A stretch of 64,000 bases of DNA, taken from assembly GCF_028368995.1 (NCBI RefSeq), contig NZ_JAQNDL010000004.1:256001-320000 (forward strand), written 5' to 3'. Each line of letters opens with the position of its first letter. Within the stretch, counting starts at the first letter, position 1. Of the stretch, positions 1,483-57,910 are shown piece by piece. This stretch comes from Nannocystis bainbridge (GTDB taxonomy: Bacteria; Myxococcota_A; Polyangia; Nannocystales; Nannocystaceae). The notes below the pieces were generated by a model. That model was given only the letters and a program-made list of their open reading frames with translations, was not told the DNA's origin and ran no database searches. The position numbers were made by a program, and so were the translations under genes.

Positions 1483-4400
1483 ATGGTCGCGCGAGTGTCG
1501 AATCAAGGCGACTGGAGCTGGTCCGAAGAGGCCCTCTATGCGTGCCCGTGCGGCTCGCTGGTGGTGGCCCGAAGGTGGCGCTGGCTCGATCGTCAGGCAC
1601 GGCCCGAGCTGGTGGCGACGCTGCGGGCCAGCGGCCCCCTCGTGGGCGCGTGTTCGCGCTGCCGCCGCCCGGCGACCGGCGGCGGGGCGTGGCTCGAGGT
1701 CGACGCGGATCGCGGGGCCGCGACGCTGGTGCTCAGCGCCGATCGCCGCGGAGATCTGATCGCCGCGCTGCAGGCCCACCTGGTCGCGCTGCAGGCCCGG
1801 CCCGAGCAGGCGGCGCCGTGGCTGCTGCAGCCGGAGGTCGCGTTCGTGCCGGTGCCGCCGCCGTGGGCCGAGGAGGCCGGCGAGGCGGCGCCCGAGCTGT
1901 CGCCGTGGCCGGGCCCGGCGCTCGGCTCGCGGGCCCAGGACTCGGGCGTGCGGGTCAGCGAGCCGGCCCGCCTCGGCGACGAGCCGGCTGGCGCGGGGGC
2001 CAGGGCGGAAGAGACAGGTGCGAAGGGGCATGTCCCCGGGGCCAGGGCCGAAGAGCCAGGTTCGAAGGGACATGTCCCGGTGGCCAGGAGCGCAGGCTCC
2101 GGCGAGGCGCCGCGGGGCGCGGGCTCGGGGCCGAGCGAGGCGGCGCGGGGCGACGCAGTGCAGGCGCGGCGGCGCGAGGGCTCGGGCGCGGTGACGGCCG
2201 CGGGCCGCCGGCGCGAGGGCTCCGACCCGGCCGCGGCGGCCCAGGCGCGGCGGCGCGAGGGCTCCGACCCGGCCGCGGCGGCGCAGGCGCGGCGGCGCGA
2301 GGCTTCGGGGCCGAGCGAGGCGGCCCAGGCGCGGCTGCGCGAGGGCTCCGGGCCGAGCGAGGCCGAGGCCCGGGCGGTCCGGGCCAGCCGCGGCAACAGT
2401 GAGTCGGCGCTGCAGGACACGTTCCCGGGCCGTCGGCGCGGGCGCTCGGCCGAGGACGTCGGGCTCGAGGAGCAGGGCAGCCTGGTGTCGGCGGCGCGGC
2501 GCTCGTTCGAGGCCAGCGGCCAGGGCAAGCCGGGCGAGCCGGGCGGGCGGCGGCCGGGGGCGGTGCTCGAAGGGACAGGTACGAACGGACAGGACGCTTC
2601 GGCCATGTCCTCCGGGGCAGGTCGGCGCGACGAGCCGGGCGGCGGGCGGCGAGCCGACGCGGCCGCGGCGGGCCCCGGGGAGGCCGGTGGCGCCGGTCGG
2701 CGCGCGGGCGCGGAGGCGCGGCCCGAGGCGGCCGGCGCGAGCGGGCAGGACGCCGCGGGGCAGGCCGCGGGTCGGCGGCCGGCGGCGGTGCTCGAGCCCG
2801 GCGACGCGGTCCGGCGGCCGGGGGCGGTGCTGGAAGGTACAGGTTCGAACGGACAGGACGCTTCGGCCATGTCCGCAGGGACAGGTCGGCCGGGCGACGC
2901 GGTCCGGCGGCCGGCCGCGGTGATCGAGCCGGGCGACGCGGTCCGGCGGCCCGGGGCGGTGCTCGAGCCGGGCGACGCGGGGTCGCGCCGGGGCTTGCCC
3001 GAAGGGACAGGTTCGAACGGACAGGATGCTTCGGCCATGTCCTCCGGGGCAGGTCGGCGGCCGGGCGCGGTGCTGGAGCCCGGCGACGCGGCGCGGCGGC
3101 CGGGGCTCGAGGGCGCGAGCGGGCCGGACGCAGCGGCCTCCGGCCGGCGGCCCACGGTGGCGCTGGAGCCCGGCGACGGGGTCCGGCGGCCGGGGGCGGT
3201 GCTGGAGCCCGGCGAGGCGAACCGGCGGCCCGGGCTGAGCGAAGGGACAGGTGCAAACGGACAGGATGCTTCGGGCATGTCCTCAGGGCCAGGTCACCGC
3301 GCCGACGAGGGCGCGCGGCGGCCGGGGGCGGTGCTCGAGGGCCCGGGCGAGGGCGGCGCGCGGGCGATCGAGGATGCGACGACGCGGCGACCCGGGGCGG
3401 TGCTCGAAGGGACAGGTGCGAACCGACAGGAACCCGCGGCCATGTCCGCAGGGACAGGTCGGCGCGACGATCCGGGCGGCCGACGGGGGCCCGAGCCGGG
3501 CGCCGAGGGCGACCCGGAGCGGTCGGCCCTGCGCGCGGCGGTGGCCCGGGCGTTGACGCCGGCGGCGCCGCCGGAGAGCGGGCCGCCTCGGCCAGCGGCG
3601 GTGCTGCCAGGGCCGGCGGAGGCGAGCGCGGCCGAGAGCAGCGGGACGTGGTCGCGGCGCCAGGTCGAGGCGGCCGACGCGGCGGCCCGGCGCAACCTCG
3701 AGGGCAGCGACAGCCGGCAGGTCAGCGAGGCGGCGATCACCGGGACCTGGCCCAAGCGCCAGATCCTCGAGGGCCCGGCCGACAGCGGGCCGGGCTGGCG
3801 CCGCGAGGAGGAGCCGCGCACGGGGCGACCGAGCCGCGCCCCGGCGCCGCCGCCGGTGCGCCTCGGGGCCGATGTCCAGCGGACCGCGCTGGGCAGCCTC
3901 GGTCGCGACGGCGGGGTTGTGCAGCTGACGGCCAACGTCAACGAGGCGACGGCGCGGGTGTGGGCGACGGCGCCGGTCAAGGTCCGGCCGATCCACCTGC
4001 GCGGGCTCGGCTATCCGCTGGTTGGCGTGCGCGCGGTGGCCGAGGCCGGCGGCGAGCCGCTGGTGATCGACGCGGTGGTCGATGTCGGCGAGCCGATGAC
4101 GCTCGACCTCTTCAAGCAGCTGACCCGCGAGTTCAAGATCCGCCTGGCGCTGCCCGGCACGCATCGCGAGCTGGTGGCGCCGGAGCTGCAACGCAACGCG
4201 GCGTCGTGCCTCGAGAGCGCGCAAGCGCAGCTCGGCACCGGCGAGTTCCCGCCCGACGCGTACCGCACGGCCCGCGAGCTGCTGACCGGGCAGAGCGCGG
4301 CGCAGCGGCTCGAGCCGGCCCGCACGCCGATCGGCGAGTCGCTGGCCGAGACCAGCCGCGAGTCGGCGGCGGCGGCGTGGCTGGCGCTCGAGCGGCTCGA

Positions 4401-6728: not shown

Positions 6729-6814
6729 GCCGGCATGGTAGGCGACGGGACCGGGCGATGGCGCGCCCTCGCGGGCCGACGCGGCGGGCCCGGGCTTGTT
6801 AGGCTGGACGGCGC

Positions 6815-7273
6815 ATGGGCAGCTACCGCCTGACCTGGCGGCCACTCGCGGGCGGCCACCTCGCCATCGGTCACAAGCCAGGACGCGACCTGCGACAGGC
6901 GCTGGCGGAGACCGGCTGCACGCACGTGCTGAGCCTGCTGGCCGACCACGAGGCGGGCGTGCCGGCGAGCGGGGTGCAACTGCGGCTGCCGCTGGCCTCG
7001 GCCGAGCCGCCAGGGCCGGAGCGCAGCGCGGAGGTGCGGGCCTGCTTCGCCGAATTGCAGGGGCTGCTGGCCGGCGGGGCGAAGATCTACGTCCACTGCT
7101 CGGCCGGGCTGCACCGCACGGGCATGGTGGCGCACGGGTTGCTGCGCTACCTGGGCCTGGGGCCCGCGGAGGCGCTGGCGCGCCTGGGGGAGCTGCGCGA
7201 GGCGACGGCGCAGGCGGCCACGGAGCCACGGCTGCGCTGGGGCGAGCAGTTCGCGGCGGACGAGCCGGGCTGA
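6815..7273 (+). CDS. protein-tyrosine/dual-specificity phosphatase
   Basis: P-loop HCSAGLHRTG (CX5R). Confidence 0.88.
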   Translation: MGSYRLTWRPLAGGHLAIGHKPGRDLRQALAETGCTHVLSLLADHEAGVPASGVQLRLPLASAEPPGPERSAEVRACFAELQGLLAGGAKIYVHCSAGLHRTGMVAHGLLRYLGLGPAEALARLGELREATAQAATEPRLRWGEQFAADEPG

Positions 7274-21384: not shown

Positions 21385-23586
21385 TCACAGCGGGATCGAG
21401 GCGACGGGGTGGGCGAGGTCGTCGATGTGCGCGACGTGGATCATGTCGCGGGCGATCGAATAGACCCAGTCTTCCATGAACACGGACCGCTGCACCTTGG
21501 AGTTGGAGTCGGTCCACCAATTGTTACACTTGCCGCTCGCGGTCTCGGGGGTCTCCGGGGCCTCGTGCGGCACGCCGCCGAGCAGCTCGAAGCCGCCGGC
21601 GATGGTCACGCGATAGACGAGCAGGCCGCTGAAGGTCATGAGGTCGCCGAAGTCGCCGCCGCTGCCGCCGGCGCAGATCGTCATCGGCACCGCGAGCAGG
21701 TCGCGGGAGCGGAAGTAGGTGAAGGCGAGGTGATTGGTGGCAGCCTCGGAGGTGGAGCCGCGGGTGCCGATGACCTCCTTGTCGAGCACCACGGGCTGGG
21801 AGAGGTCGGTGGTGTCGATGATCTGCAGCTGGAGGCCCTCGAACCACGCGAAGTCGCCTTGATCGGCGGCGTCGTAGCCCATGGTCAGGAGGTGGTCGTC
21901 GTCGAGGATGTGCATGTAGGTCGAGAAGCCGGGGATCTTGAGCTCGCCCGCGACGCTCGGGGCGCGCGGGTCGGACAGGTCGAGGACGAACAGCGGGTCG
22001 GTCTTCTTGAAGGTGACGACGAACCCGATGTCGCCCTTGTAGCGCACGGAGCGGATGTCCTCGCTCGGGGCCAGGTGGTCGACGCGGCCCTCCTCGCGCA
22101 GCCGCGAGCCCTTCTCGCGCAGCACGATCACGGTGCTGTGCACGTCGGGGTCGGGGAGCCAGCCGCTGGTGGTGGCGACCCGCAAGGCGCCCTCGTACTC
22201 GTCCATGGCGAACTGGTTGAGGATCCGGCCCTTGACGGCGCCGCTGGCCGCGTACTCGGAGGTGGCGCCGTCGAGGGCGAACTTGTGCACGCTGGTGGCC
22301 TCGTTGACGTCGGCGGCGAGCTCGGGGAACCAGGCGGCGGACTGGGCCTTGTCGTGTCGCACGGCGAGGTACAGCGAATCCTTGGAGGCGTAGACCGGGC
22401 CGGGCCGGCTCATGATGGTGGTGGTGGCGAGGGGCGCCAGCTTGCCGACGGCGAGCGAGACCAGCGAGACGAAGGAGCGGCTGTCGCCGGTCGAGGACAA
22501 GAAGACCTCATCGCAGGCGCTGAGCGGCCCCTGCATGGTCCAGGTGACGCCGCCGAGGTGCCAGGTGTCGCGCACCGAGGGCAGGAGGTCCTTGATCGGG
22601 GCTTGCTCGATCTGCTGGAGGTTGGCGAGGCGCAGCGCCTCGAATCGCTGGAGGACGTCCTGGGTGGTGAAGCCCTGCTGGCCGAGGCCGCACCAGGCGT
22701 CGGGCAGGCTCTGGGGCCAGTAGGTCATGCCGCCGACGTCGAGCTCGGGGAACACGAGGGCGGTGTGGACGGCGTCGCCGATCCGCCGCGAGTTGAGGTA
22801 CGAGCCGTTGAACTCGATCTCGCGCACGAGGCGAGGCTTGGCCCGATCGGCGAGGTCGAGGACGGTGACGAGCAGCTTGCGGCCGTCGCCGGTGAACTCG
22901 CAATCGTAGCCGTAGGTACAGTCGGGCTCGACGGCGGCGTCGGACCAGGGATCGCTGCCGAGAGAGGGGTCGACGTACTCGAGCGAGGCGTAAATGACGG
23001 CAGTGTCGCCGTGCACGTACATCCGCTTCGGGGTGCCCTGGAGCGGGACGGAGGCGAGCTCGTGGGCCTGGTCCGCGGGCCAGGCGTCGAGGACGCGAAA
23101 GCGGCCGCCGGCGAGGATGTAGAGGTAGCTGCCGTCGTTCTTGACGAAGTCGGCCTCGTCGACGTCGGCGACCTGGGTGTTGGTTTCGGAGTAGTCGCTG
23201 GCGGCGTCGCTGCCGGTCTCCTCCTCTTCTTCTTCCTCTTCCTCCTCCTCTTCTTCCTCGCCCCAATCGCCGCAGTCGCTGGCGACGGCCTGGAGGGCCA
23301 TGGTCAGGTTGTTGTGAAGGCTGGCCTCCATCTCCTGAATGGCGGTAGCCTTGAGGGCGGTCGCCAGGTCGTCGCACGAGTCGGCGCGATCGAGGGCGGC
23401 GGCGCCCTGGCGCGGGGCGTCGGCCGGCGAGGCGTCGCCGGCGAGGGCGGGCGACGCCGGCGGGCCGAACAGGCCCTCCGCGGGCGCTCCGGCGACCGGG
23501 TCGGCAGGCGCCGGGGAGTCGCAATGGAGAGAGATTGGCGTCAGCAGCGCCAGGGTGAGTGCAGCGATTCTTCGTGGTCCACGCAT
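21385..23586 (-). CDS. secreted beta-propeller domain protein (Beta_propel-like)
   Basis: SETNTQVADVDEADFVKNDG, LNQFAMDEY...LRVATT, VTFKKTDPLFVLDL, GELKIPGFSTYMH. Confidence 0.88.
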   Translation of the reverse strand: MRGPRRIAALTLALLTPISLHCDSPAPADPVAGAPAEGLFGPPASPALAGDASPADAPRQGAAALDRADSCDDLATALKATAIQEMEASLHNNLTMALQAVASDCGDWGEEEEEEEEEEEEEETGSDAASDYSETNTQVADVDEADFVKNDGSYLYILAGGRFRVLDAWPADQAHELASVPLQGTPKRMYVHGDTAVIYASLEYVDPSLGSDPWSDAAVEPDCTYGYDCEFTGDGRKLLVTVLDLADRAKPRLVREIEFNGSYLNSRRIGDAVHTALVFPELDVGGMTYWPQSLPDAWCGLGQQGFTTQDVLQRFEALRLANLQQIEQAPIKDLLPSVRDTWHLGGVTWTMQGPLSACDEVFLSSTGDSRSFVSLVSLAVGKLAPLATTTIMSRPGPVYASKDSLYLAVRHDKAQSAAWFPELAADVNEATSVHKFALDGATSEYAASGAVKGRILNQFAMDEYEGALRVATTSGWLPDPDVHSTVIVLREKGSRLREEGRVDHLAPSEDIRSVRYKGDIGFVVTFKKTDPLFVLDLSDPRAPSVAGELKIPGFSTYMHILDDDHLLTMGYDAADQGDFAWFEGLQLQIIDTTDLSQPVVLDKEVIGTRGSTSEAATNHLAFTYFRSRDLLAVPMTICAGGSGGDFGDLMTFSGLLVYRVTIAGGFELLGGVPHEAPETPETASGKCNNWWTDSNSKVQRSVFMEDWVYSIARDMIHVAHIDDLAHPVASIPL

Positions 23587-24008
23587 CGTGATCTCCTGCT
23601 CGAATCATCGAGCGGGGTCGAGGCGCGCGGGCGTATCAGACCGCGAGCGAGCAGCCGTTCGCCCCATTCGGCAGCGACGCGCGACCCGACCCCATTCGGC
23701 AATCGTGAGGAGGTCGGTCCTGTCGGCAAGCACGCTCGGCCACGAAAGGCGCGCGGCTGTCGTCCGGCGTACGCGTCTGCCGGCTCGCTCCTCACCGGCG
23801 GAGCGAAGGCGTCGATCTGTCGTCGAGGTCGTGTGGGATGTCCTCGGGGACAGGTCGAGAGCGGGGCGGAGAAGATGCGGAGCCGCCGCTGCGCGAGCAG
23901 GCGAGCGAGCGTCGTGGTCGGCGACGGTTCGCGTCGCGAGCGGGAGCGCGGTCGTGGAGCGCGCCTCCCCGGGTCCGCAACGGGCGTCTGGACCGGCGCA
24001 GGTAAGTG

Positions 24009-24033
24009 TGAGAAACATCTCAAATTAAGTGAG
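24009..24033. promoter_or_regulatory. AT-rich patch with overlapping inverted repeats upstream of ECF operon
   Basis: TGAGA-N4-TCTCA and CTCA-N7-TGAG, ending about 50 nt before ATG 24082. Confidence 0.35.
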
Positions 24034-24081
24034 CCCATCCGAGAACGATTCTCGGCGAGCTCGCGACGAAGGGCGGGAACC

Positions 24082-24666
24082 ATGACCACGGGCCGCGACC
24101 CAGACCTCGACCTCTTGCAGCGCTGGCGCAGCGGCGCGGCAGCGGCCGGCAATCAATTGTGCCGGCGCTTCGAGCCGAAGCTGCGCCGCTTCTTCGCCGC
24201 CAAGGTGCAGCCCGCCGACGTCGAGGAGATGGTCCAGCAGACCTGGTTGGCGCTGACCGGGGCCTGCCGCCGGGCCGACCTGCGGCCGGAGAGCGGCGGC
24301 CTGGATGCGATTCGCACGACGTTTCGCGCGTACCTGTACGGCATCGCCCGCCACACGCTGCTCGCGTATCACCGCAAGAACTACCGCGGCGGCCGCGACT
24401 TCGATCCGGAGGTCGAGAGCCTCGAGACGCTGGCGCCGTCGCTCAGCCAGCAGCTGTCGCTGCAGCGCCGGGTCAAGCAGCTCGAGCTGGCGCTGCGGAG
24501 CCTGCCGCTCGAGCTGCAGCTGTTGACCGAGGCGCGCTACGTCGAGGAGCTGTCCGGTCCGGAGCTGGCGGAGATGTTCGCGCTGCCCGAGGGCACGGTG
24601 CGCTCGCGCCTGTCGCGGGCGCGACGCTTGATGGACGAGGCGCTCGAGCGCCTGGAGCGGAAGTAG
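24082..24666 (+). CDS. ECF RNA polymerase sigma factor
   Basis: sigma2 (DVEEMVQQTW, FRAYLYGIA) and sigma4 (LSGPELAEMFALPEGTVRSRLSRAR). Confidence 0.92.
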   Translation: MTTGRDPDLDLLQRWRSGAAAAGNQLCRRFEPKLRRFFAAKVQPADVEEMVQQTWLALTGACRRADLRPESGGLDAIRTTFRAYLYGIARHTLLAYHRKNYRGGRDFDPEVESLETLAPSLSQQLSLQRRVKQLELALRSLPLELQLLTEARYVEELSGPELAEMFALPEGTVRSRLSRARRLMDEALERLERK

Positions 24667-24674
24667 GAGAGATC

Positions 24675-27494
24675 ATGCGCGAGCCGGAGCCCATCACCGA
24701 GCACGACAGCGGCGCGAGCGATCGTTTCATGCGCCTGTTCGCCGAGCACCGCGAGCAGGCCGCGACCGCCGATGCGTCGGCCGGGGGTGCCTTCGATTTC
24801 CCGGCCGAGGACGTCGCGGCCTTCAGCGCGCTGATCGGCGACCGCTACCGGATCGAGCGCGAGCTCGGACGCGGCGGCATGGGGGTCGTCTTCCTCGGCC
24901 ACGACCATCGGCTCGAGCGCTGCGTCGCGCTCAAGGTGTTGCCGCGCGCGCACGGCGAGAGCGCGGCGCATCAGCGCCGATTCCTGCGCGAGGCGCGGAC
25001 GGTGGCCAAGCTGTCGCACCCCCACATCGTGCCGATCCTGCACGCCGAGGAGGCCGGGCCGTTCGCCTACTTCACGATGGCCTACGTCGAGGGCGAGACG
25101 CTCGCCGAGCGGATCCGCCGCGCAGGTCGCATGCCGGTCGTCGAGGTGGTGAAGGTGCTGCGCGAGGTCGCGTGGGCGCTGGCGTACTCGCACGCGTGCG
25201 GGGTGGTGCACCGCGACGTCAAGCCCGAGAACATCCTGCTCGAGCGGGCCACGGGCCGCGCGCTGGTGTCGGACTTCGGCATCGCCCAGCAGGTCGGCGA
25301 CGCGGGCATCACCGGCGCCGATCACCTGGTCGGCACGGTCCTGTTCATGAGCCCGGAGCAGGCGCAGCGCGTCGAACTCGACGGGCGCAGCGATCTCTAT
25401 TCGCTGGGGGTGGTCGGCTTCTGGCTGCTGTCCGGCAAGTATCCGTTCGCCGCCGACACGGCGCTGGCGTCGTTGCTGCAGCGCGTAAATCGGCTCGCGC
25501 CGCCGCTGCGCTCGGTCGCCCCCGATGTCGCGCCGGCGATCGCGGCGGTGATCGATCGCTGCCTCGCGCGCGCGCCGGACGACCGCGTGCGCAGCGGCGA
25601 GGAGCTGGCGGAGGCGCTCGAGCGGGCGCTGCACGGCGAGCCGAAGAGCGGCCGCGACGAGCGTGCGCTGGGCGAGGCCGAGATCGGCGCGGCGCTGCTG
25701 CAGGCCGCCGAGCTGCGGCGGATGCTCCGCGAGCACGCGGAAGCGCCGGCGCCGATCGACCGGGTCTGCCGCGCGCTGGGCGAGCAGCTCGGCGTGCCCG
25801 GCGGCGTGGCGATCGACCTGTTCGAGCGGCTCGCGCTCATGTGCCCCGGCGACGCCGACGACCTGCGCGTGCTCGCTGCGGCGCACGGGCAGCTGTTGCC
25901 AGATCCGCAGCATTCCACGGCCGCCGACCTCGGCGCCATGTTCGCGACCCGGGACGACGCCTCGCTGTTCGAGCGGCTGCTCGGCCTGAGCCGCGGCTTG
26001 CCGCTGCACCACCCGCTGGTCCAGCGCCTGCATCTGCTGGCCGCGCGCGTGCGGGCGCATCGTGACGGGGCCGACGACGGCGAGGTCGCGGCGCGCTTGT
26101 TGCTCGAGATCCGCGACCTCGCCGCGCGCCTGCTCGAGCTGCGGCGCGAGGGCTTTGGCGAGCCGGTCGTCGACCACGAGAGCGCGACGCTCGGGCTCTA
26201 CCAGGAGGTGTTGGCGGAGGTCCGCCGCAACGACGGCGTGCGGGCATCGAAGCGGCTCCTGGACCTCGCGCGGGTGCGTGGGGCCTCGCGCTCGCAGCTC
26301 GCGGCGGTCGGCGCCCTCGCCGAGCAGGCGAGCCAGCACGCCGGCGTTCATGCCGCCCGCGGGAGCGACGACGCGTGGTTCGCCTTGCTGGCCGCGCTGC
26401 TCGAGTCGGCCGGCAGCCTGGTGTCGGCGGGTCCGGACGAGCTGGCGATCACCGCGCGCACCGACGAGCTGCGACGCGGCGACCTGCAGAGGGCGCGGCG
26501 ACTGTTCCTCGCGCGCCGCGGCGAAGAGCCTCCGCGAGCGAGCGACGCGATCTTCGTCGCCGAGGCGGTGGGCAAGTCGTACGGCCGCCGCAACCGCGCC
26601 GCCGATCAGGTGCTGGGCGACGTCTCGCTGGCGCTGCATCCCGGGACCATCACCGGGGTGGTCGGGCCCAACGGCTGCGGCAAGACCACGCTGCTGCGGA
26701 TCGTCGCCGGCCAGCTCGCGCCCGATGTCGGCCGCGTCGCCTATCCGCGGCTGGATCCGCCGGGCGTCGCGCGCGGGACGACCGACTGGCAGCGGGTGCT
26801 GCCGCAGATCGGCTACGTCGCGCAGCGCCCGGAGCGGTGGTTCGGCGGCCTCGGCGACAACCTGCACCGCTGGGCCGCGCTGCACGGGGTGGTCGGCGAG
26901 GACAACGCGATCGAGGTCGAGTTCTACCTCAACCGCCTCGACCTGCTGCGTTACCGCGACGCCCAGTGGCACGAGCTGTCGGGCGGCTATCGCATGCGCT
27001 TCGAGCTCGCGCGCGTCATGGTCGCGCGCCCGCGCCTGCTGGTGCTGGACGAGCCGCTGGCGCCGCTCGACATCAATTCGCAGGAGACCTTCCTGCGGGA
27101 CCTCCGCGACCTCGCCGACATGGACGGGCAACAGCTGCCGATCCTGCTCAGCTCGCAGCACATCGTCGAGGTCGAGTCGATCGCGGACACGCTGTTGTGC
27201 CTGCACCAGTCGGGTCGGCCGCGCTTCTGCGGCCCGGCCCGCGCAGTGGCGGGTCGCGGCGACGAGCGGGTGTACGAGCTCGGCGGCGCGATCTCGCAGG
27301 ACCTGCTCGACGCGGTGCGCCAGCAGTTCGCGCTCACGGCCCATCGCGCGGGCGAGCGCTGGATCGTGCGAGTGCCGGCAGATGTCCCGGAGGACAGGTT
27401 GCTGCGGGCGCTGCTGGCCCGCCACGGCAGCGTCGATTACTTCCGCAACATCACGCAATCTTGCGTGCGTTTTTTCAGGGGAGATGCGTCATGA
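24675..27494 (+). CDS. Ser/Thr kinase - helical repeat - ABC ATPase fusion
   Basis: GRGGMG, VALK, HRDVKPEN, DFG, MSPEQ; Walker A GPNGCGKT, signature LSGGY, Walker B LLVLDE; GGAGA RBS. Confidence 0.9.
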   Translation: MREPEPITEHDSGASDRFMRLFAEHREQAATADASAGGAFDFPAEDVAAFSALIGDRYRIERELGRGGMGVVFLGHDHRLERCVALKVLPRAHGESAAHQRRFLREARTVAKLSHPHIVPILHAEEAGPFAYFTMAYVEGETLAERIRRAGRMPVVEVVKVLREVAWALAYSHACGVVHRDVKPENILLERATGRALVSDFGIAQQVGDAGITGADHLVGTVLFMSPEQAQRVELDGRSDLYSLGVVGFWLLSGKYPFAADTALASLLQRVNRLAPPLRSVAPDVAPAIAAVIDRCLARAPDDRVRSGEELAEALERALHGEPKSGRDERALGEAEIGAALLQAAELRRMLREHAEAPAPIDRVCRALGEQLGVPGGVAIDLFERLALMCPGDADDLRVLAAAHGQLLPDPQHSTAADLGAMFATRDDASLFERLLGLSRGLPLHHPLVQRLHLLAARVRAHRDGADDGEVAARLLLEIRDLAARLLELRREGFGEPVVDHESATLGLYQEVLAEVRRNDGVRASKRLLDLARVRGASRSQLAAVGALAEQASQHAGVHAARGSDDAWFALLAALLESAGSLVSAGPDELAITARTDELRRGDLQRARRLFLARRGEEPPRASDAIFVAEAVGKSYGRRNRAADQVLGDVSLALHPGTITGVVGPNGCGKTTLLRIVAGQLAPDVGRVAYPRLDPPGVARGTTDWQRVLPQIGYVAQRPERWFGGLGDNLHRWAALHGVVGEDNAIEVEFYLNRLDLLRYRDAQWHELSGGYRMRFELARVMVARPRLLVLDEPLAPLDINSQETFLRDLRDLADMDGQQLPILLSSQHIVEVESIADTLLCLHQSGRPRFCGPARAVAGRGDERVYELGGAISQDLLDAVRQQFALTAHRAGERWIVRVPADVPEDRLLRALLARHGSVDYFRNITQSCVRFFRGDAS

Positions 27495-28765
27495 GAGGGA
27501 CCTATTCACGATATCGAATGGTGGCCGCGTGGGGGCGGCTCGACCGCTATTTGTTGCTCAACCGGCCGCACCTATGGACGATGCGCTTTCATGGGACGGT
27601 GGCGCTGGGGCTGCTGGCCACCGCCGCGGCGCTGGTCATCGCGGCGATGGTGCCGGTCGCGGTCGACAGCGTGCCGAGCCTGCGGCCGTTCTTTCTGTCG
27701 TTGCTGGCGCTGAGCACGATCGGATCGCTCTATTGGACGTGGCTGCAATTCCGGGTGCTGCGCCACGTCAGCGTGCGCGGCCGCGACGGCGGCGGGCTGA
27801 CGTTCGTGCTCAACCTGGTGTGCCTGGTGGCGATTCTCCTGCCGCCGCTGGCGGCGACGTCGCTGCTGCGCGCGCGCGTGGTCGAGCGGGTGCCGCAGGC
27901 GCAATATCAGGCGGATATGCGGAGCTTCAACGAGGGGGTGAATGCGCTGAGGGCGTTCGATCGTCCGCGGCAGACGTATCGCTGCTCGCCGAGGGACGAG
28001 GAGCGCATGTTCGGCAAGGATTTCTGCGCGGGACCGATGCCGTCGCCAGCGACCCTCGTGCCTGCGGAGTTCGTGGCGCTCGAGCGCGATGGTGACGAGT
28101 TCAACCGGATCGACTGCGACGAGTGCGGCGCCGTGAACACACGGCTGGAGGCATTCACGGCGGTGGTCGCCCGCTACGGCGAGTCGCGCGCCGGGGCCAA
28201 CCTGAGCAACCTGCAGGTCGCGCACGGGCTCGGCGCGATCGAGACCTATCCGAGCCGATCTCACCTCTTCTCGGTGTGGTTCATGGCCGTGATCGCGGCC
28301 ACTGGCCTCACGATCGCCCGCACGTGCTCGCTGCGCCTGCTGCTCGAATCGGCCGCCGCGCTCGGGGCGGTGTGGGTCGCGCTGACGTTCCTCAGCAGCG
28401 CCTACGCGGCCCACTCGGGGTTGTCGTCGCTGCTCACGGTGGCGGTGTGCGCGGGCGCGCTGCCGGTCGCGGTGCTGGGCCTCCTGACCCGTCCGACCGG
28501 GCTTCAGCTGCGCCTGCTGGTCGCAGCCTGCTTGCTCGCGCCGGCGGCCACGTTGATCGCCGGGATGGCGATCGCCACGTCGCGCGACCTGTTCGATCAC
28601 ACCGACGTAGTGGAGTCGATGAACTACTTCGCCACGCCGTGGTCGAGCCACGGCGATGGGTTCTTCTTCGGGATGATCGGGCTGACCACGCTGGTGGCGA
28701 TCGCGGCGCTGGCGATGTTCCGCCCGGTGGCGCAGCGCATGGCCGCGATCCCGCGGCGACGCTGA
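27491..28765 (+). CDS. polytopic membrane protein, probable partner/permease of the ABC domain
   Basis: About 8 hydrophobic segments around a Cys-containing loop; ATGA overlap with upstream gene. Confidence 0.8.
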   Translation: MRGTYSRYRMVAAWGRLDRYLLLNRPHLWTMRFHGTVALGLLATAAALVIAAMVPVAVDSVPSLRPFFLSLLALSTIGSLYWTWLQFRVLRHVSVRGRDGGGLTFVLNLVCLVAILLPPLAATSLLRARVVERVPQAQYQADMRSFNEGVNALRAFDRPRQTYRCSPRDEERMFGKDFCAGPMPSPATLVPAEFVALERDGDEFNRIDCDECGAVNTRLEAFTAVVARYGESRAGANLSNLQVAHGLGAIETYPSRSHLFSVWFMAVIAATGLTIARTCSLRLLLESAAALGAVWVALTFLSSAYAAHSGLSSLLTVAVCAGALPVAVLGLLTRPTGLQLRLLVAACLLAPAATLIAGMAIATSRDLFDHTDVVESMNYFATPWSSHGDGFFFGMIGLTTLVAIAALAMFRPVAQRMAAIPRRR

Positions 28766-28826: not shown

Positions 28827-30800
28827 TCAGGGCGTCTTGCAGATGTACGGCCGCGGCGAGTCGCAGGGCAGGTCGTTCCACAGGCCGGCGGACCAGGCGG
28901 GGAGGTTGGCGCAGTCCTCCTCGCCGGCGTTGTTGGGCTCGCCCTCGTTCCAGGCGGTGAAGCCGAGCGCGGTGCCGTCGGTCCACACGAAATCGTCCTC
29001 GCTGGCGATGTCGTTGAGGCCGATCCACCAGTCGCTGTTGGCGACCATGAACGCCTCGGCGGCGGCCCAGTCCTGGGTGGCCTGGTCGGGGATCGACAGC
29101 AGGTGGCCGCCCTGGGTCACGCAGTCGGCCTCGGCCTGGGCGAAGGGCAAGGCGACGAAGCAGAGCTGGGCGGTGCCGGGGCCGGGCAGGTCCTTCTCGA
29201 CGCAGTGGGGGCACAGGGGGTCGTCGTCCCAGACGCCGTCGCAGTCGTCGTCGTCGAGGTCGCAGGCCTCCTGGGCGCCGGGGTGGACGTCGGGGTCGTT
29301 GTCGTCGCAGTCGTCGGTGCAGGCGGAGAAGCCGTCGCCGTCGAGGTCGACGTCGCTGGGGATCGTGCAAGCGAGGCCGGCCTGGACAGAGGCGGCGCGC
29401 TGCATGAAGAAGGCGACGTTGCCGGCGATCTCGTTGGTGTTGTCGCCGTCGCTGCACTCCTTGCGCGGGTCGGCGGCGACGGCCGGGGCGATGCTGGCCC
29501 CGAGCTCGGCGGCGGCGCCGGCGAGGTCGAGGGCGTCGACGCGGGCGAGCACGTGGTCGAAGCTGTCGGCGAGCTGCTCGCGGCACGGCTGCGAGGCGGC
29601 GCACATCTGCGCCAGCCGCCCGTCGCCGCCGAACGGGTCGAGGTGGTCGCGCAAGATCTGGTCGATGCCCCACGGCATGAAGGTCCACAGCGCGCCGTCC
29701 TCCTGCGGGCGATGGACGTAGTAGTTGTTGCGGGTCCAGGCGTAGCCGTCCCAGTGGCCGAGGTAGATCTCGGTGGCGGCGAAATCGAGGTAGCGCCCGA
29801 GGTCGAGGACAGCGGCGACGTCGCTGGTAAAGGCGGCGGGGTCGAGCATGCCGTCGAGCGCGGTGGCGAAGTCGTAGAGGTCGGCGAATTCGAGGTCGTC
29901 GCCGTTGTCCTGATCGAAGGAGGGCACGAGGTCGGTGCGGATGTCGCTGCCGTAGGCGCCCTCGTAGATGCTGCCCTTGTCGCTGCCGTACCAGTGGTCG
30001 AGGTAGGGCTCGTTGTCGACGGACTCGACGGCGGTGTAGAGGCCGTAGGGCTCGCCGTTGACGCGCACGACGACGTGGCCGGCGCGGGGGGCCGCGATGC
30101 CGACGTCGCGGAAGAGCGAGTAGCCGAGGATCTCGCGCTGCATGCTGCAGTCCTGGACCATGTTGTTGACGGCGAGCTTCTCGAGGCCCAAGAGCCGCTG
30201 GTCGTCGACGTTGCGGTCGAAATTGAGGAGGAAGGCGGCCTTCTGATCGAGGGTGCGATAGGAGCCGTAGTTGCCCTTGAGGCGCACGCCGATCTCGGTC
30301 AGCTCGTAGACCTGGCCGTCGATCTTGGCCACGAGGTCGCCCTTGGTGTACTTCTTGCCATCGGCGTCGAGAGCGGCGATCGCCTCGTCGGAGAGGGTGA
30401 GGTCGAACTCGGCCATGGCGCCGAAGGCGAACAGCGGCTCGGCCTCGAGGTAGGGGTCCGGATCGCCGGTGGTGCCGCTGGTGGTGTCGGGTTCCTGCGT
30501 GGTCGCGGTGGCGTCGGTGGTGGTCGCGGTGGTGGTCGACGTCGCGTCGGTGGTGCTGGTGGTCACCGCGTCGGTGGTCGAGGTGTCGGTGGTGCCGGTG
30601 GTCGGGACGTCGGTGGTCGAGGTGGTGGTGCCGGGAGTGCCGGTGGTCGGCGCGGTCTCACTGGCGTCGGAGGTGGCGTCCGTCGTGGTGGCGTCGGTGG
30701 TGGTGGCGTCCGTGGTGGCGTCGGTGGTCTGAGCCGTGGGGCTGGTGCAGGCGGCGGCGAGGAGGAGCGGGACGGAGCGGTAAACGGCAGTGCGGGCCAT
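28827..30800 (-). CDS. CotH kinase family lipoprotein with Asp/Cys metal-binding repeat and C-type lectin domain
   Basis: LAAAC lipobox; GVRLKG, NNMVQD, HWDGY...NNYY, MPWGID; DCDDNDPDVHPGAQEACD; WIGL...EPN...WND..C. Confidence 0.88.
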   Translation of the reverse strand: MARTAVYRSVPLLLAAACTSPTAQTTDATTDATTTDATTTDATSDASETAPTTGTPGTTTSTTDVPTTGTTDTSTTDAVTTSTTDATSTTTATTTDATATTQEPDTTSGTTGDPDPYLEAEPLFAFGAMAEFDLTLSDEAIAALDADGKKYTKGDLVAKIDGQVYELTEIGVRLKGNYGSYRTLDQKAAFLLNFDRNVDDQRLLGLEKLAVNNMVQDCSMQREILGYSLFRDVGIAAPRAGHVVVRVNGEPYGLYTAVESVDNEPYLDHWYGSDKGSIYEGAYGSDIRTDLVPSFDQDNGDDLEFADLYDFATALDGMLDPAAFTSDVAAVLDLGRYLDFAATEIYLGHWDGYAWTRNNYYVHRPQEDGALWTFMPWGIDQILRDHLDPFGGDGRLAQMCAASQPCREQLADSFDHVLARVDALDLAGAAAELGASIAPAVAADPRKECSDGDNTNEIAGNVAFFMQRAASVQAGLACTIPSDVDLDGDGFSACTDDCDDNDPDVHPGAQEACDLDDDDCDGVWDDDPLCPHCVEKDLPGPGTAQLCFVALPFAQAEADCVTQGGHLLSIPDQATQDWAAAEAFMVANSDWWIGLNDIASEDDFVWTDGTALGFTAWNEGEPNNAGEEDCANLPAWSAGLWNDLPCDSPRPYICKTP

Positions 30801-30932
30801 GACCCGCGACGGTACGCCGACTGCAGACGGGTGGGAGGGTCGGCGTTTGCAGGTCCAGGGGCCGCGAGGGCGTGAGGGACGTGCTGGCCGGGGTTCCGCG
30901 GGGATCGAGGCGCTACGCAGGCGCGGCTCGGC

Positions 30933-31056
30933 GCTGTCCTTCGGGACATGTTGCGGGCGGCCGAGGGGCGAGAGAGCGCGCGGGCCGGGGCTGCCTCTCG
31001 GGACAGGTCATGGGGCGGGGGCGAGCCGGGGACGGCGGCTGTCTCTCGGGGCAGGT
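30933..31056. repeat. three 14-bp-phased doublets (GCTGTCCTTCGGGACATG-like)
   Basis: Core pairs 30933/30947, 30990/31004, 31038/31052. Confidence 0.8.
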
Positions 31057-37461: not shown

Positions 37462-40400
37462 TCACGCGCTCGCGGGCGCGGCCGGGCCCGCGGCCGGGAG
37501 CTCGATCGTGAACACGGAGCCCTGTCCCGGGGTGCTGACGACCGAGACGCGGCCGCCCAGCAGCTCGCACAGGCGCCGGGTGATCGTCAGCCCGAGGCCG
37601 GTGCCGCCGGCGCGCCGGGCGGCGGAGCTGTCGGCCTGATGGAAGGCCTCGAACACGCGCTGGGTCTCCTCGGCGGTCATGCCGATGCCGGTGTCGTCGA
37701 CGGCGAACACCATGCGCTCGCCGTCGCGGCGCACCCGCAGGCTGACGGTGCCGGCCTGGGTGAACTTGGCGGCGTTGCTGAGCAGGTTGAGCAGCACCTG
37801 GCGCAGGCGCACCGGGTCGCTGTGCATGTCGCCGAGGTCGTCCGCGACCTCGACGACGAAGTCGTTGGCGGCGCGCTGCATCAAGGGCCGCACGGCCTCG
37901 GCGACCTCGTGGACCAGCGGGGCGACGGCGAACGACTGCAGGCTGATCTCGAGCTTGTCGGCCTCGATCTTCGACAGGTCGAGGATGTCGCTGATGACCC
38001 CGAGCAGGTGCGAGCCGGCGCGCTGGACCCGGCCGATGTCGGCCTGCAGCTCGCCGTCGCCGCGGTCCTCGGCGACCTCGGCGAGCAGCTCGGCGTAGCC
38101 GATGATCGCGTTGAGCGGGGTGCGCAGCTCGTGGCTCATGTTGGCGAGGAAGGTGCTCTTGGCCCGGCTGGCCGACTCGGCGGCCTCGCGCGCCTCCTGC
38201 AGGCGGGCGACCAGGCGCGCGTGCTCGATCGAGGTGGCGATCTGCGAGCTGAGGAGGTGGAGCGTCTCGATGCGCGCGGGGGTGAAGGCGCCGGCGGTGA
38301 CGCGGTTCTCGAGGTAGAGCGCGCCGAGCCGCTGGCCCCGGAGCACCAGCGGCAGGCACACCAGCGACTGTGGGCGCAGCTCGGCGAACACCGGGTCGGC
38401 GGCCAGCGCGGCGGCGATGTCGGGGTCGTCGAGGGTGACGATCTCGCCTGTCCGAAAGGCCAGGCGAATGGGGACCGCGGGGACGCGCGGGCTGGCCTCG
38501 AGCGGCTGGAGGGCCAGCTGGGTGCGGGCGTCGCCGTCGGCCGCGAACTCGCCGACGACGGCGAGGCCGTGGTGCTCCTGCAGCACGAGCACGCCGCGGC
38601 TGGCGCCGGCGGTGAGCACGACGATCCGCATGACGGTGTGGATCAGGTCCTCGAACCGCAGCTCGGCGGCGAACGCCTGCGAGGCGCGCAGGACGCTGCG
38701 GAGGTCGAGCTCGGCCTGGGCGGCGCGCGGGACGAAGGCGGCCATGGGCTCGAGCGCGGCGGCGTGGGGCAGCTCGCGCCGCAGCTGCGCGGCCTTGGGG
38801 TGCGCGCCCCAGCGGGCGTAGCGCTCGCTGGCGTCGCGCAGCAGCATCTGGCTGACGTGGGTCCTGCCGATCGCGGCGTAGTAGCGACCCGCGAGCTCGG
38901 CGGCGAGGGCGGCGTGCCAGGCGAAGCCGTGGTCGACGGCGAGGCGGAGCGCCTGGTCGTAGGCGACGCCGGCGCCGTCGTGGTCGCCGCACAGGCGCGC
39001 GCGCTCGGCCTCGACGAGGCGGGCGCGGTGCTCGTAGGTCTCGGGCGCGGACTCGGACCACTCGACGAGCTGCTCGTGGAACGGATCGATCCAGCGGCGC
39101 AGGGCCTCGTCGCGGGCGATCGAGCGGCCGGCGGCGGCGGCGGCGACGAGGGCGCCGAACAGCGGCAGCTCGGTGGTGAAGTAGAAGCCGTAGCCGGCCT
39201 GAATCCCGGGGCCGACCTCTTCGAGCAAGGCGAGCGCCTCCTCGGTGCGGCCGAACAGCACGCCGAGCTGGAGGCGGGCGAGGTAGTACCAGCGCAGCGC
39301 GAAGGTCAGGCTGTCGCGGCGCAGGCGCTCGCAGAAGGAGGTCTCGTCGAAGCCGGGGTCCGACAGGGCGTGCGGGGCGACGGTGTCGCCGACCAGGGCG
39401 GCGACGAATTGACGGGCGACGGTCAGCACGGCTCGCGAGGAGGCGACGCGGGTCCGCTCCATCAGCAGCAGCGCCTCGTCGGCCGCGGCCGCGACCTCGG
39501 CCAGCGGGCGCCCGAGGCTCAACATGGCGATGATCTGGTGGCTGCAGGCGAAGGATAAATAGTTGTAGTCGCCCGACTCGAGGCCGTCGCGGCGCGAGCG
39601 CTGGAGGTCCTCGACGACCTCGACGAGCGGGCGCGAGAAGTGGGTGTAGGAGGCGAACACGAAGCCGAGCCGGCAGCGCAGCTCGGGGCTGCCGCGGCGC
39701 TCGTTGAGCTCGCGGGCGAACCGCCCGAACGCCTCGGCCTCGCCGTAGCTGCGGCGCACGGTGGCGAGGAAGAAGCCGAAGATCACGTAGGTGAAGGCCG
39801 AGAGGTCGGTGTGGCCGTGATCGATGGTGATCCGCACCTGCTTGGTGATGAGCAGGGCGTAGAGGTCCGGCATCGTCATGTTGGCCGGCGTGAGCAGCTC
39901 TTGCAGGATCTCGAGCGCGGCCCGATGACCGGGGTCCTGCAGCGGCGGGGCGTCCATCAGCGCGAGGAAGGGCCGGCTCGAGAGGTCGTCATGCAGCGCC
40001 GACAGCTCGCTGGCGATCGCGGCCCGGCGCGCGTCCTCGCCTTCGGGCAGGTCGACGCCGAGCAGCCGCAGGCCCTCGCGCCCGGCCTCGATCGCGGCGT
40101 GGATCCGGCCGGCGGTGACGTGCACGGTGACGCGCAGCGCCTGCACGTGGGCTCGCTCGCGCGTGGAGAGCTCGCGGTCGGCGAGGGCGTCGAGGCAGGC
40201 GTCGGCGCGGTCGATGGCGCCGCGCAGGTACTCGCAGGTGGCGCGCTCGAACTGCAGATCGAAGCCGAGCGGATCGCCGGGGACCCAGGTCGCGACGTCG
40301 ACGGGCGATACGCCGTCGGACGGGTCGCCGAGCAGCAGCAGGCCGCCGAGGACGTGGGCGAGCGCGGCGTCGTGGCTGGTGCTGGCGCGGGCGCGGCGGG

Positions 40401-42609
40401 CGGCCTGCAGGTGGAGCTCGGCGGCGCGGCGGCGCAGGGCGGGGTCGTGAAGGCGCGGCTCGGCGCGGCGGAGGTGAGCGACCCGATCGAACAGGACCTC
40501 GCTGGCGTCGCCGCCGTCGCGCGCGAGCAGGACGTGGGCGATGGCGAGGTGCAGCGCGGGGCGATCGTCGGGGTCGACCAGGGCGTCGGCGGTCTGGCGC
40601 ACGCGGTCGTGGAAGAAGCGCATGAGGCCGGGGCCGGCGGCGGCGACGAGGTCGAGGTCGAGGGCGGGGCGCAGGCGCACGACGGCCTCGTCGCGGTCGC
40701 AGCCGAGGACGCTGGCGAGCAGGGCGAGGTCGAAGCGAGCGCCGATGCAGGCGGCGACCTTCAGGGCCTGCAGGGTGGGCGCGGGCAGCTTGCGCAGGGT
40801 GGCGCCGAACAGGTCGGCGACGGTCTCGGGCACGCTGGCGGCGTCGACCCCGGCGAGGGCCCAGGTCCAGGCGCCGGCGGCGGCGTCGAAGCGCAGGCGG
40901 GCCTCGCGGTGGAGGAAGCGCAGGTACTCGCGCACGAACAGCGGGTTGCCGCCGGTGCGCCGCAGCAGCTCGTCGGCGAGCGGGCGCACGGGACCGCCGC
41001 CGAGCACGTCGCGCAGCAGGTGCTCGACCTCGTCGACGCCGAGCGAGCCGAGCGCGACCTCCACCGGCGCCGGCGTGAGGCCGCGCAGCGCGGTCAGGTG
41101 GGCGTGCAGCGGCGTACCGGGCGCGGCCTCGTTGTCGCGGAAGGCCTCGATCAGCAGCAGGTGGCGGACCTCGACGCTGGCCGCCAGGGCCTCGCACAGG
41201 CGCAGGCTGGCGGCGTCGGCCCACTGCACGTCGTCGAGGAACAGCACGAGCGGGCAGTCGGCGGCGGCGAAGCAGGCGACGAAGCGCTGCAGGGTCAGCT
41301 GCAGCCGCTGCAGCCGCTCGCCGGCCGACAGCGGGGCGGGCGGGGGCTGGGCGCCGACGATCGCCTGCAGCTCGGGCAAGAGCTCGGCGATGACCGGCAG
41401 GCCAGGGCCGACGCCGCGCCGCAGCCGCTCGCGCCACTTCGCGACCTCGGACTCGCGGCCCGAGAGCGCGTGCCGCAACAGGCCGCCGAACGCCTGGGAC
41501 AGGGCCGAGAACGGCTCGCTGCTGCGCTGCGGCTCGAACTTGCCGGCGGCGAAGCGGGCCCGCTCGGCCAGCTCGCCGGCCAGCTCCTGCACCAGCGCCG
41601 TCTTGCCGCCGCCCGAGGGCGCTGCCAGCAGGCACACGGCGCTGTCGCCCTCGCTCGCGCGGGTGAAGGCCTGCCGCAGCCGCAGCAGCGCCTCGTCGCG
41701 CCCGTAGAGGCTGTCGGGCAGGCGCAGCGGCGCGTCGCGGCGGGGCTCGAACGGGGCGCCCTCGGGGTGGGCGCAGGCGGCCCGCAGGTCGAGCAGCAAT
41801 GCCGCGGCGCTGGCGTAGCGGTCCTCGCGGTTCTTGGCCAGCAGCGTGTGCACGATCGCCGCCAGCGCCGGCGAGACCGTCGGCGCCATGTCCTTCAGCG
41901 GCGCGGGCAGGCGGGTCAGGTGGGCGTGCAGCAGCTCGAGCGGATCGTCGTCGACGAACGGCGGGGCGCCGCTCAGCAGGGCGTAGAGCACCGCGCCGAG
42001 CGCGTAGAGGTCGGCGCGCGCGTCGGGCGGGTGACGCGTGCGGCCGCTCTGCTCGGGCGCGAGGAAGCCGATCGGACCCGTCAGCGCGTCGGCCGGCGCC
42101 GGCCCGATCGCGCCGGCCACCTCGGCGCGCGCGAGCTCGCCGAGCTTGACCGTCCCGCTCGAGTCGATCCAGATGGCCGCGGGGCTCAGGCCGGCGTGGA
42201 TCGCCCCGGCCGCGTGCACGCGCACCAGCGTCTCCGTCACCGCGATCGCAAGGGCCAGCGTCGCCGCCTCGTCGCGCCAGCGCGGATCTTCGACGCGGAC
42301 CGGCACCCCGGCGAAGGGCTCGTAGATCAGGGCCAGCCGCGAGCCGTGCCACTCGAGCCCGGGAGTCTGAAGAATGCCCGGATCGGCGAGCACCCCCGCG
42401 ACGGCGTGCTCCCGCTCGAGCTCGGCGAAGACGCCCGCGCCGGCGTCGCCGATGGACAGCTTGAGCAGCATGAGCGTGCCGTCCTCGCGAGTGGCGCGTA
42501 CGACCTGCCATTGCGGAGTCGCGACGAGCGACTCGACGACGCGAAATCCCGGCATGCCCAGGCGCTCTTCGGCTCGGCGTTCGTGCACGCGGAACCCCGA
42601 TTGTGCCAT
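37462..42609 (-). CDS. hybrid pseudokinase - AAA ATPase - TPR-like - GAF - histidine kinase
   Basis: APEQSGR/DLYALG kinase C-lobe; APSGGGKT and FLDDVQWAD; LYLEN GAF; [30 protein letters not shown]; start uncertain (42630/42609/42555). Confidence 0.9.
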
Positions 42610-42924
42610 GGAAGGCCCGCCCGCATGCATCGGCGGCGCGGCCGCCAGCAGGTTTGCCGGGCGGGGCTCACGGGGGCGCTACGGCCGAGCCCGAGGCGGG
42701 GGCGACGAACCCGAGCGCGCGTGGGCAGATATTGCTGTCGCATACGTCGGCCGGGGTCCCACCTGCGTGGCCCGATCGCGGCGGAGGTGCCCCGGTGGCG
42801 CGAAATGTGGCCCGCGGACGCGCATGGCGAATACGAGCGCGGCGCGGTTTGGCCCCGAATCGTGGCACTCGGGACTCGTTGCATTCATCGGCCCGCGGAG
42901 CGGGTGCATGCGATCGGCCGATCG

Positions 42925-54945: not shown

Positions 54946-55150
54946 GCCGGCGGTGTCGCTGCGCTGCATCGATTCGCAGCGCAGCGCACGACGCGTGTCG
55001 TGATTGACGTGGTGCCATTATTCGCCACGCATGCGGTGATTGTCGCGATGCCATGATTGCCGCCGCGAATGAAGGTCGCGCCGAGGGACCGCGATTCATG
55101 GCATCGCGTCGCGCGGTGATTCGCGCCCTCGCGGGCACCGCCGCGCGTCG

Positions 55151-57910
<2,760 letters not shown>

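Follow-up and report, generated by a model that had tools for sequence, protein, structure and literature searches.

Three tightly spaced genes on one strand of a 64,000-nucleotide stretch of the Nannocystis bainbridge genome (contig NZ_JAQNDL010000004.1, positions 256,001 to 320,000; hereafter the window) form an operon that encodes an extracytoplasmic function (ECF) sigma factor (P0001), a protein in which a Hanks-type Ser/Thr kinase and an ATP-binding cassette (ABC) ATPase are joined in a single chain (P0002), and a polytopic membrane protein (P0003). We propose, with confidence a little short of even, that P0002 and P0003 make up an ATP-gated membrane sensor core of which the fused kinase is the output, signalling to the co-translated ECF; such a core would probably be a new kind of membrane sensor. 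In this proposal, the ABC ATPase of P0002 would dock on the cytoplasmic face of P0003, which would bear a cysteine-rich periplasmic domain. P0003 would sense an envelope or periplasmic event, and sensing would alter the ATP-dependent closing of two ATPase domains. Closing would in turn pair two kinase domains, allowing their trans-autophosphorylation, and the active kinase would phosphorylate its targets, for which the co-translated ECF, or a factor controlling it, is the leading candidate; the ECF would then drive a transcriptional response. We infer the sensing, the dimer-driven activation of the kinase and the role of the ECF as kinase substrate. Elsewhere, the same core carries an EAD11 adaptor that would recruit trypsin-like proteases or TIR enzymes tagged with EAD11; in the Nannocystis lineage, the Hanks kinase at the N-terminus of a long-linker form of the core would provide a built-in output.

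A kinase fused to an ABC ATPase in a three-gene operon

The ECF gene (24082-24666, + strand) ends in a TAG stop codon and is followed by an 8-nt gap containing GGAGAG, after which the P0002 gene starts with an ATG at 24675; a ribosome-binding site falls within the end of the ECF gene. The TGA of the P0002 gene (27492-27494) overlaps the ATG of the P0003 gene at 27491 (ATGA), and rereading the coordinates and junctions bore out the tight coupling claimed in a preliminary description of this DNA. Both flanking genes, a Beta_propel gene (21385-23586) and a CotH/lectin gene (28827-31007), lie on the opposite strand, so the unit is the three-gene operon. Neither an anti-sigma nor a solute-binding domain was detected by Pfam in the three genes or the two flanking ones, in line with the preliminary description. 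Third-position GC stays at 0.88-1.00 in one frame along the P0002 gene (plot starts 24700 to 27250), and the ECF and P0003 genes each show a frame of their own. The continuous coding frame gives no sign of a lost stop codon or frameshift within the P0002 gene. Third-position GC of the operon is that of the genome, the G+C content of the window is 70-82%, and the best protein matches are to Nannocystis.

P0002 (939 amino acids, 24675..27494, + strand) was delimited by Pfam, the frame plot and its homologues. The Ser/Thr kinase domain occupies residues 58-306 (24846..25592; Pfam Pkinase, E 5.7e-45), and its closest solved relatives are the kinase domains of PknB and PknA (E ~1e-49). Its Hanks-type motifs are all present: GRGGMG at 65, the Lys of VALK at 87, HRD at 179, DFG at 200 and SPE at 226. 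The kinase is followed by a linker (residues 331-625, 25665..26549) that is homologous to the N-terminal region of the kinase-less proteins P0023, P0159, P0027 and that of locus L001; local phmmer comparison gave 164 bits to P0008, a second fusion protein, and 49-52 bits to P0023 and P0027, and an ESM Atlas search with the linker returned no usable match. Residues 626-939 (26550..27491) form an ABC nucleotide-binding domain with a C-terminal domain, recognised by Pfam (ABC_tran, residues 648-796, E 1.7e-24), NCBIfam and motifs. It has the features of the ABC ATPase superfamily with a variant signature: Walker A at 664, the Q-loop glutamine Q717, LSGGY at 768, Walker B at 788-793, the D-loop at 796 and the switch SSQH (His 829). 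When the ATPase region was compared with PDB sequences, all that emerged were generic ABC proteins at 70-96 bits. Hydropathy detected 0 hydrophobic segments in P0002, and the preliminary picture of an intact Hanks kinase and a complete ABC domain in a protein with no transmembrane helix is correct.

The same fusion occurs elsewhere. We searched 1.84 billion cluster representatives with P0002 and compared the best 150 matches locally in three parts. Kinase-only proteins accounted for 145 of them; the others were one protein with kinase, linker and ATPase (P0008), two with linker and ATPase and no kinase (P0023 and P0027), one ATPase fragment, and one protein with kinase and ATPase joined by a different middle part (P0135). 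P0008 (953 amino acids) is 55% identical to P0002, residues 10-938 of P0002 aligning with 11-952. A search with residues 335-939 of P0002 retrieved P0158 from Nannocystis radixulma (823 amino acids, Pkinase and ABC_tran) together with ten kinase-less relatives of 526-740 amino acids. The searches thus recover the fusion of Pkinase with ABC_tran in two further protein clusters, P0008 and P0158, and the fusion, although rare, is not unique to this assembly, a possibility that the preliminary description had raised.

P0003 (424 amino acids, 27491..28765, + strand) is, by hydropathy and AlphaFold, an 8-helix membrane protein with three helices, a periplasmic domain and five helices. It has 7-8 hydrophobic segments and a loop at ~134-255, and matches no Pfam or NCBIfam family. 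The AlphaFold model built from 22 sequences (pLDDT 86.2, pTM 0.82; a fold from 4 sequences reached a pLDDT of 53 and was not used for the fold search) begins with a helix at the N-terminus; three membrane helices follow, then a mixed domain (134-255) and another five helices. A Foldseek comparison of this model with the PDB gave 0 matches at E ≤ 0.001 and a best TM of ~0.27, a search that a distant helical-bundle likeness can escape. In the alignment of 22 family members, P26 is invariant and W29, W82, R88 and P421 are nearly so. The cytoplasmic N-terminal helix (residues 1-32, 27491..27586), with the family motif LDxxLLxNxPxLW, is the predicted ATPase-docking element, jointly with residues 88-96 and the tail at the C-terminus (415-424). 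Residues 134-255 (27890..28255) are predicted by the positive-inside rule to be periplasmic and contain four conserved cysteines (165, 179, 209 and 212), invariant in 4/4 sequences (P0003 and three close homologues), so that the polytopic protein with a Cys-containing loop of the preliminary description was found again. The length of this domain ranges from ~130 to ~450 amino acids across the family, and it is a candidate for the sensing part. A tblastn search of plasmids with P0003 gave no match, and the ESM Atlas returned unnamed clusters, mostly from Bacteroidota.

To describe the contact between the two proteins, we modelled residues 620-939 of P0002 in complex with P0003 in three runs, with three controls and using our own alignments; the complex model covered these two of the three operon proteins. 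The ATPase part and P0003 docked with an ipSAE of 0.64 (0.62-0.64 across runs) versus 0.01 for the best control. Of 157 solved complexes, 116 attained the ipSAE mark, against 2 of 215 mismatched pairs; the use of our own alignments makes these counts approximate. The runs share at least 96% of contacts, with a pLDDT of at least 76 for the partner. P0003 is predicted to contact the ATPase through residues 22-30, 88-96 and 415-424, including P26, W29, R88 and P421, and the ATPase through residues 676-684, 705-710 and 720-745, which flank the Q-loop. In the model, family-invariant residues of P0003 would therefore dock into the ATPase groove, and docking into this groove is textbook geometry. The result may be due in part to likeness to solved complexes; P0003 itself has no solved relative.

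The ATPase-membrane gene pair in other genomes

The ATPase of P0002 belongs to a clade with the specific motifs LSGG(Y/F), LDEPLAPLD and SSQH. A scan of one genome per species with two clade motifs yielded 417 stretches; confirmation left 339, and 80 loci were retained. Thirty-six of these (L001-L036) match at E ≤ 1e-30, and the other retained loci are ordinary ABC genes. The genomes returned by the scan include neither that of the window nor the two Nannocystis genomes that hold P0158 and P0007. The 36 loci come from at least five phyla, Myxococcota, Acidobacteriota, Planctomycetota, Verrucomicrobiota and, mostly, Bacteroidota. In 33 of the 36 loci, the gene immediately 3' of the ATPase gene encodes a P0003-family protein, as judged by a hidden Markov model (HMM) built from 22 proteins; 15 of the 33 are outside the HMM seed, and the exceptions are L016, L017 and L027. 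An independent hydropathy analysis of 33 loci agrees with this: in 25 of them the next open reading frame (ORF) shows 5 or more hydrophobic segments, with three helices before a large loop and four to five after it, as in P0003, and tblastn with P0003 recovers the downstream ORF in six loci. When 12 of the downstream membrane proteins were compared with Pfam, no family scored above its cut-off. Some membrane partners depart in size: that of L013 (10948-14424) has 1158 amino acids and ~15 hydrophobic segments, as if duplicated or fused, and the loop domain is enlarged to ~340-450 amino acids in L009, L026 and L028.

A quick maximum-likelihood tree was computed from the ATPase domains of 14 proteins, the 36 loci and 6 outgroup loci from L037-L080. 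The clade splits from the ordinary ABC outgroup with an SH-aLRT support of 96. The three kinase fusions group together (93) and are nested among kinase-less long-linker forms, with P0027 as sister (95) and an enclosing clade supported at 98, while the forms with kinase, TIR and nSTAND1 constitute a separate group (100). These two kinase-bearing groups indicate that a kinase joined the ATPase at least twice, and the kinase of P0002 appears to be a derived output, added to the N-terminus of the long-linker form in the Nannocystis lineage. Two loci labelled Agrobacterium sp. and Burkholderiales (L015 and L030) have 42-43% G+C and group within the Bacteroidota ATPase clade; their bin assignment is probably wrong. 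In the high-G+C loci L001, L002, L004, L005, L007 and L011, the ATPase gene, the membrane gene or both failed a third-position GC filter passed by the genes around them, which hints at horizontal acquisition of the module there; the operon of the window does not show this sign.

The usual form in the clade is an EAD11 adaptor joined to the ATPase. Pfam EAD11 (PF19964) matched P0163 and 6 of the 13 locus-encoded ATPase proteins scanned (E ≤ 0.01), and an iterated EAD11 HMM matched the ATPase gene in 15 loci at E ≤ 1e-14. In L028 and L029 the adaptor lies in a small ORF just 5' of the ATPase gene, and one weak match was obtained in L035. A second EAD11 gene directly follows the membrane gene in six loci, where EAD11 is fused to Trypsin_2 (L002, L005, L007 and L011) or to TIR_2 (L003 and L004). 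In the EAD principle as set out by Kaur et al. (2020, 2021, eLife), one adaptor copy sits on the core NTPase and further copies on effectors; the additional EAD11 copies on trypsin and TIR genes fit this principle. Other relatives are organised differently: locus L008, from a Nannocystaceae genome, and P0135 encode a Pkinase-TIR-nSTAND1-ATPase protein followed by the membrane gene, and P0164 (L006) is an nSTAND1-ATPase protein with a kinase ORF just upstream. The ATPase of the relatives is C-terminal, behind nSTAND1 or the EAD11 adaptor, which supports the idea of an ABC-type membrane sensor driving the fused kinase; in the nSTAND1 proteins covered by published descriptions, the sensor domain holds the position taken here by the ATPase.

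The neighbourhoods of the module were scanned over 41 of 89 and 32 of 56 listed ORFs, those nearest to it. L001 comes after type I restriction-modification genes, L027 has HsdS on one side and HsdR on the other, and L009 is bordered by a D12 methylase and by a HindIII endonuclease with a methylase. Kinase genes near the module in L001, L005 and L007 were not counted, because kinases are dense in these genomes and a kinase gene merely near the module carries no weight. Altogether, sequence comparison suggests that the ATPase-membrane pair derives from EAD11-coupled, immune-looking systems. P0002 itself contains a degenerate EAD11-like stretch within its linker (residues 509-555, ...NDGVRASKRLLDLAR..., 26199..26339, + strand), which hhalign aligned with the first half of the domain only, with a probability of 32% when the three fusions were used and 88% with six sequences. 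Pfam found no EAD11 on P0002, and the EAD11 HMM had no match at E ≤ 0.05 in any ORF of the 64 kb.

The sigma factor and competing explanations

P0001 (194 amino acids, 24082..24666, + strand) is an ECF by its Sigma70_r2, Sigma70_r4_2 and Sigma70_ECF domains (Pfam) and TIGR02937 (NCBIfam), and its reading frame is supported by the frame plot. Its sigma-2.2 region, PADVEEMVQQTW, retains the acidic motif DVEE. In an alignment of 21 ECFs, the homologues carry V(D/E)E(L/M) at this position, and the linker between sigma2 and sigma4, PSLSxQLSL, is conserved. In the ECF43 group as described, the acidic DAED of sigma-2.2 is replaced by Ser/Thr and phosphorylation is required there; P0001 keeps DVEE and is thus not intrinsically inactive in the ECF43 manner. 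A neighbouring kinase and no anti-sigma factor are the signature published for kinase-controlled ECF groups, and this arrangement is seen in the window. One further contig may also pair an ECF with the fusion: P0280, which is 64% identical to P0001, is listed on a contig of 8789 nt, as is P0008, and the two listings share one source, which suggests a second ECF-fusion pair. Assignment of P0001 to ECF267, a group described from Sorangium and Chondromyces with kinases nearby, was rejected because the FecR-TPR anti-sigma at +1 that goes with this group is missing from the operon.

Several observations weigh against the proposed pathway from membrane sensor to kinase to ECF. The ECF is the most likely downstream element, but its link to the kinase is the weak part of the proposal. 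P0001 does not have the Ser/Thr replacement of DAED, and the one demonstrated mechanism from kinase to ECF, that of ECF43, is therefore not applicable; the signalling to the ECF envisaged in the preliminary description agrees with the operon structure and the inferred second contig, on which the link rests, but cannot draw on this mechanism. About 30 clusters exceed 50% identity to P0001, nearly all of them from short metagenome contigs, versus 3 fusion clusters, and most members of the P0001 subfamily may have other partners. Among the 120 matches listed, there was no ECF from the two Nannocystis genomes that hold P0158 (N. radixulma) or P0007 (Nannocystis sp. SCPEA4), and a related ECF occurs in only one of the 36 loci (L008), where it is 37% identical, on the opposite strand and in an operon with a dehydrogenase gene; given this strand and operon, we consider it probably unrelated. 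The other half of the proposal, an ABC-type membrane sensor driving the fused kinase, fits the pairing in 33 of 36 loci and the docking score, but P0003 is not a recognisable ABC permease, having no match to the membrane folds of known ABC transporters in Pfam, NCBIfam or the PDB fold search. P0158 is annotated 116 amino acids shorter, starting inside the kinase and without the kinase N-lobe. The presence of the same EAD on core and effector, seen in six related loci, does not extend to the window, which contains neither an EAD11 match nor an effector gene and whose neighbours are not defence genes. Kinases are also dense in the window itself, which encodes 3 Pkinase proteins, P0002 included. 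Finally, the EAD11 ancestry makes room for a defence reading, in competition with plain stress signalling.

In that reading, which we judge fairly unlikely, the operon is a defence (conflict) system whose core detects infection or envelope damage and whose fused kinase is the effector, causing shutdown of the cell by broad phosphorylation in the manner of known defence kinases, while the ECF merely sets operon expression or adds a transcriptional arm. The relatives with EAD11-trypsin genes, EAD11-TIR genes or TIR-nSTAND1 fusions and the location of L001, L009 and L027 among restriction-modification genes argue for it, and in TRADD-N conflict systems a domain reported from the effector position is an ECF-like helix-turn-helix. 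The P0002 kinase domain also scores 280 bits against the PD-T4-6 kinase models of PADLOC, but these models match ordinary PknB-like kinases too. Further PADLOC matches were generic, to kinases (PD-T4-6, mad6) and ABC-like proteins (mad3, mad8, AriA, PtuA); no system-specific PADLOC model matched the P0002 ATPase or P0003, and none matched P0003-family proteins. In addition, there is no EAD11 partner within the 64 kb, the neighbouring genes do not belong to defence, and the operon does not stand out from the genome in third-position GC.

That the operon encodes a working ABC exporter or importer whose ATPase the kinase controls in cis, with the ECF inducing the operon under envelope stress, we regard as unlikely. 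In favour of it, the ATPase is complete, the NCBIfam models that it matches best are those of exporter subunits (CcmA, DrrA, NodI and GldA types, all below cut-offs), the predicted docking resembles a transporter coupling element in the Q-loop groove, and one ESM Atlas cluster of structural neighbours of P0003 is auto-named 'putative ABC transporter permease'. However, P0003 falls in no Pfam family and matched none of the solved ABC membrane domains in fold, neither a binding protein nor a second permease is present, and the recurrent partners of the pair are adaptor-tagged proteases, TIR and STAND modules rather than transport-related genes. An assembly or annotation artefact, in which a lost stop codon joined two genes, was rejected as extremely improbable. 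Its sole hint is the shorter annotation of P0158, whereas the coding signal is unbroken in one frame, P0008 aligns with P0002 end to end, the linker has its own counterpart in the N-terminal part of the kinase-less relatives, and a second, independent kinase-containing architecture exists (L008 and P0135).

Surroundings of the operon and comparison with known systems

The stretch that separates the ECF gene from the divergent Beta_propel gene (23587..24081, + strand) presumably holds the operon promoter; no sigma-70-like promoter was found in it. A 7-bp inverted repeat, CCGAGAA-cga-TTCTCGG (24039-24055, + strand), lies 27 nt 5' of the ECF start codon in a local A+T-richer patch and could be an operator or an RNA hairpin. 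Within the last P0002 codons, 15-25 nt before the P0003 start, there is a terminator-like G+C-rich hairpin followed by TTTTTT (27452-27476, + strand). Its T-run looks unusual at ~72% G+C, and it may attenuate transcription, but the number of terminator-like sites is within chance (4 per 5.5 kb vs 1.6 ± 1.7 in shuffles). The convergent neighbour at 28827-31007 (- strand) carries CotH kinase-like, MopE metal-binding and C-type lectin domains. Further away, the window encodes a 1737-amino-acid kinase/NTPase/histidine-kinase hybrid with a partial Pkinase, an AAA_16 (STAND-like) ATPase, GAF, HisKA and HATPase_c (37462-42678, - strand), and an FHA-domain protein (52650-53654, + strand) that is followed 1.4 kb on by a 945-amino-acid Ser/Thr kinase with NPHP3-like TPR repeats (55073-57910, + strand), located in a stretch of 82% G+C. 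Another stretch, at 2001-4000, has 81% G+C and a strong AT skew (0.24), and a 156-amino-acid ORF (6803-7273, + strand) gave a sub-threshold match (26.5 bits, cut-off 27) to the DSP-PTPase phosphatase family of polymorphic toxin systems.

In the published descriptions, PknT/EcfP of Vibrio parahaemolyticus and PknS/EcfK of Xanthomonas citri, of group ECF43, likewise have an ECF beside a Hanks kinase and no anti-sigma factor. These kinases are described as transmembrane proteins (for PknS, in PMC13147305), whereas P0002 is soluble and would reach the membrane through its ABC ATPase and the separate P0003. The kinase of ECF43 systems is presumed to relay an envelope signal, as we propose here, but ECF43 members lack DAED and are phosphorylated at that site, and P0001 keeps DVEE.

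Two kinds of ABC proteins with a place in signalling offer a second comparison. In BceAB, the sensor is the ABC complex itself; its permease is of the FtsX/MacB type, and its signal goes to a histidine kinase. The likeness lies in an ABC complex serving as the sensor of a pathway; the difference is that P0003 contains no FtsX domain by Pfam and that the operon has no histidine kinase, a Hanks kinase being fused to the ATPase instead. In FHA-ABC transporters of the Rv1747 type, a separate Ser/Thr kinase regulates in trans a transporter that has a standard exporter fold and is the target. These proteins share with P0002 the coupling of Ser/Thr phospho-signalling to an ABC ATPase; however, kinase and ATPase share one chain in P0002, and its family context suggests that the ATPase is the switch rather than the target.

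The relatives of P0002 resemble in organisation the EAD-coupled conflict systems of Kaur et al. (2020, 2021), in which, as in these relatives, an NTPase core and an effector of the same operon carry the same adaptor, here EAD11. Some relatives are fused to nSTAND1, TIR and kinase domains and some lie beside restriction-modification genes, and the described EAD8-nSTAND1 systems with EAD8-trypsin resemble the EAD11-ATPase relatives with EAD11-trypsin. They differ in that the core NTPase is here an ABC ATPase predicted to be bound to a polytopic membrane protein, and the window has a degenerate EAD11 remnant only, no effector gene, and an ECF instead. EAD11 is listed with a single architecture in the relevant part of Kaur et al., and the term 'ABC' has 0 occurrences in the main text and part of the supplements of the two papers, of which other supplementary files could mention it. 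A broader claim, which we regard as possible and rather doubtful, is that a so far undescribed ATP-gated core arms EAD11 proteases and TIR enzymes across at least five phyla, and so would constitute a new class of immune or cell-death system, and that Nannocystis has domesticated it into a third route of ECF control, one that uses neither an anti-sigma factor nor the phospho-switch of ECF43. If the proposal holds, a soluble Hanks kinase would be wired to the membrane through an ABC ATPase, an input that we did not find among the characterised bacterial kinase and ECF pathways. The gene pair would be a widespread one, with a membrane half that has no Pfam name or solved fold and with recurring protease, TIR and STAND partners, and would be a candidate new defence system with a membrane ABC ATPase as its NTPase switch. 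The effector recruited in trans, the STAND module fused in cis, and the kinase fused in cis together with a sigma factor would then form a natural series leading from immune modules to ordinary signalling.

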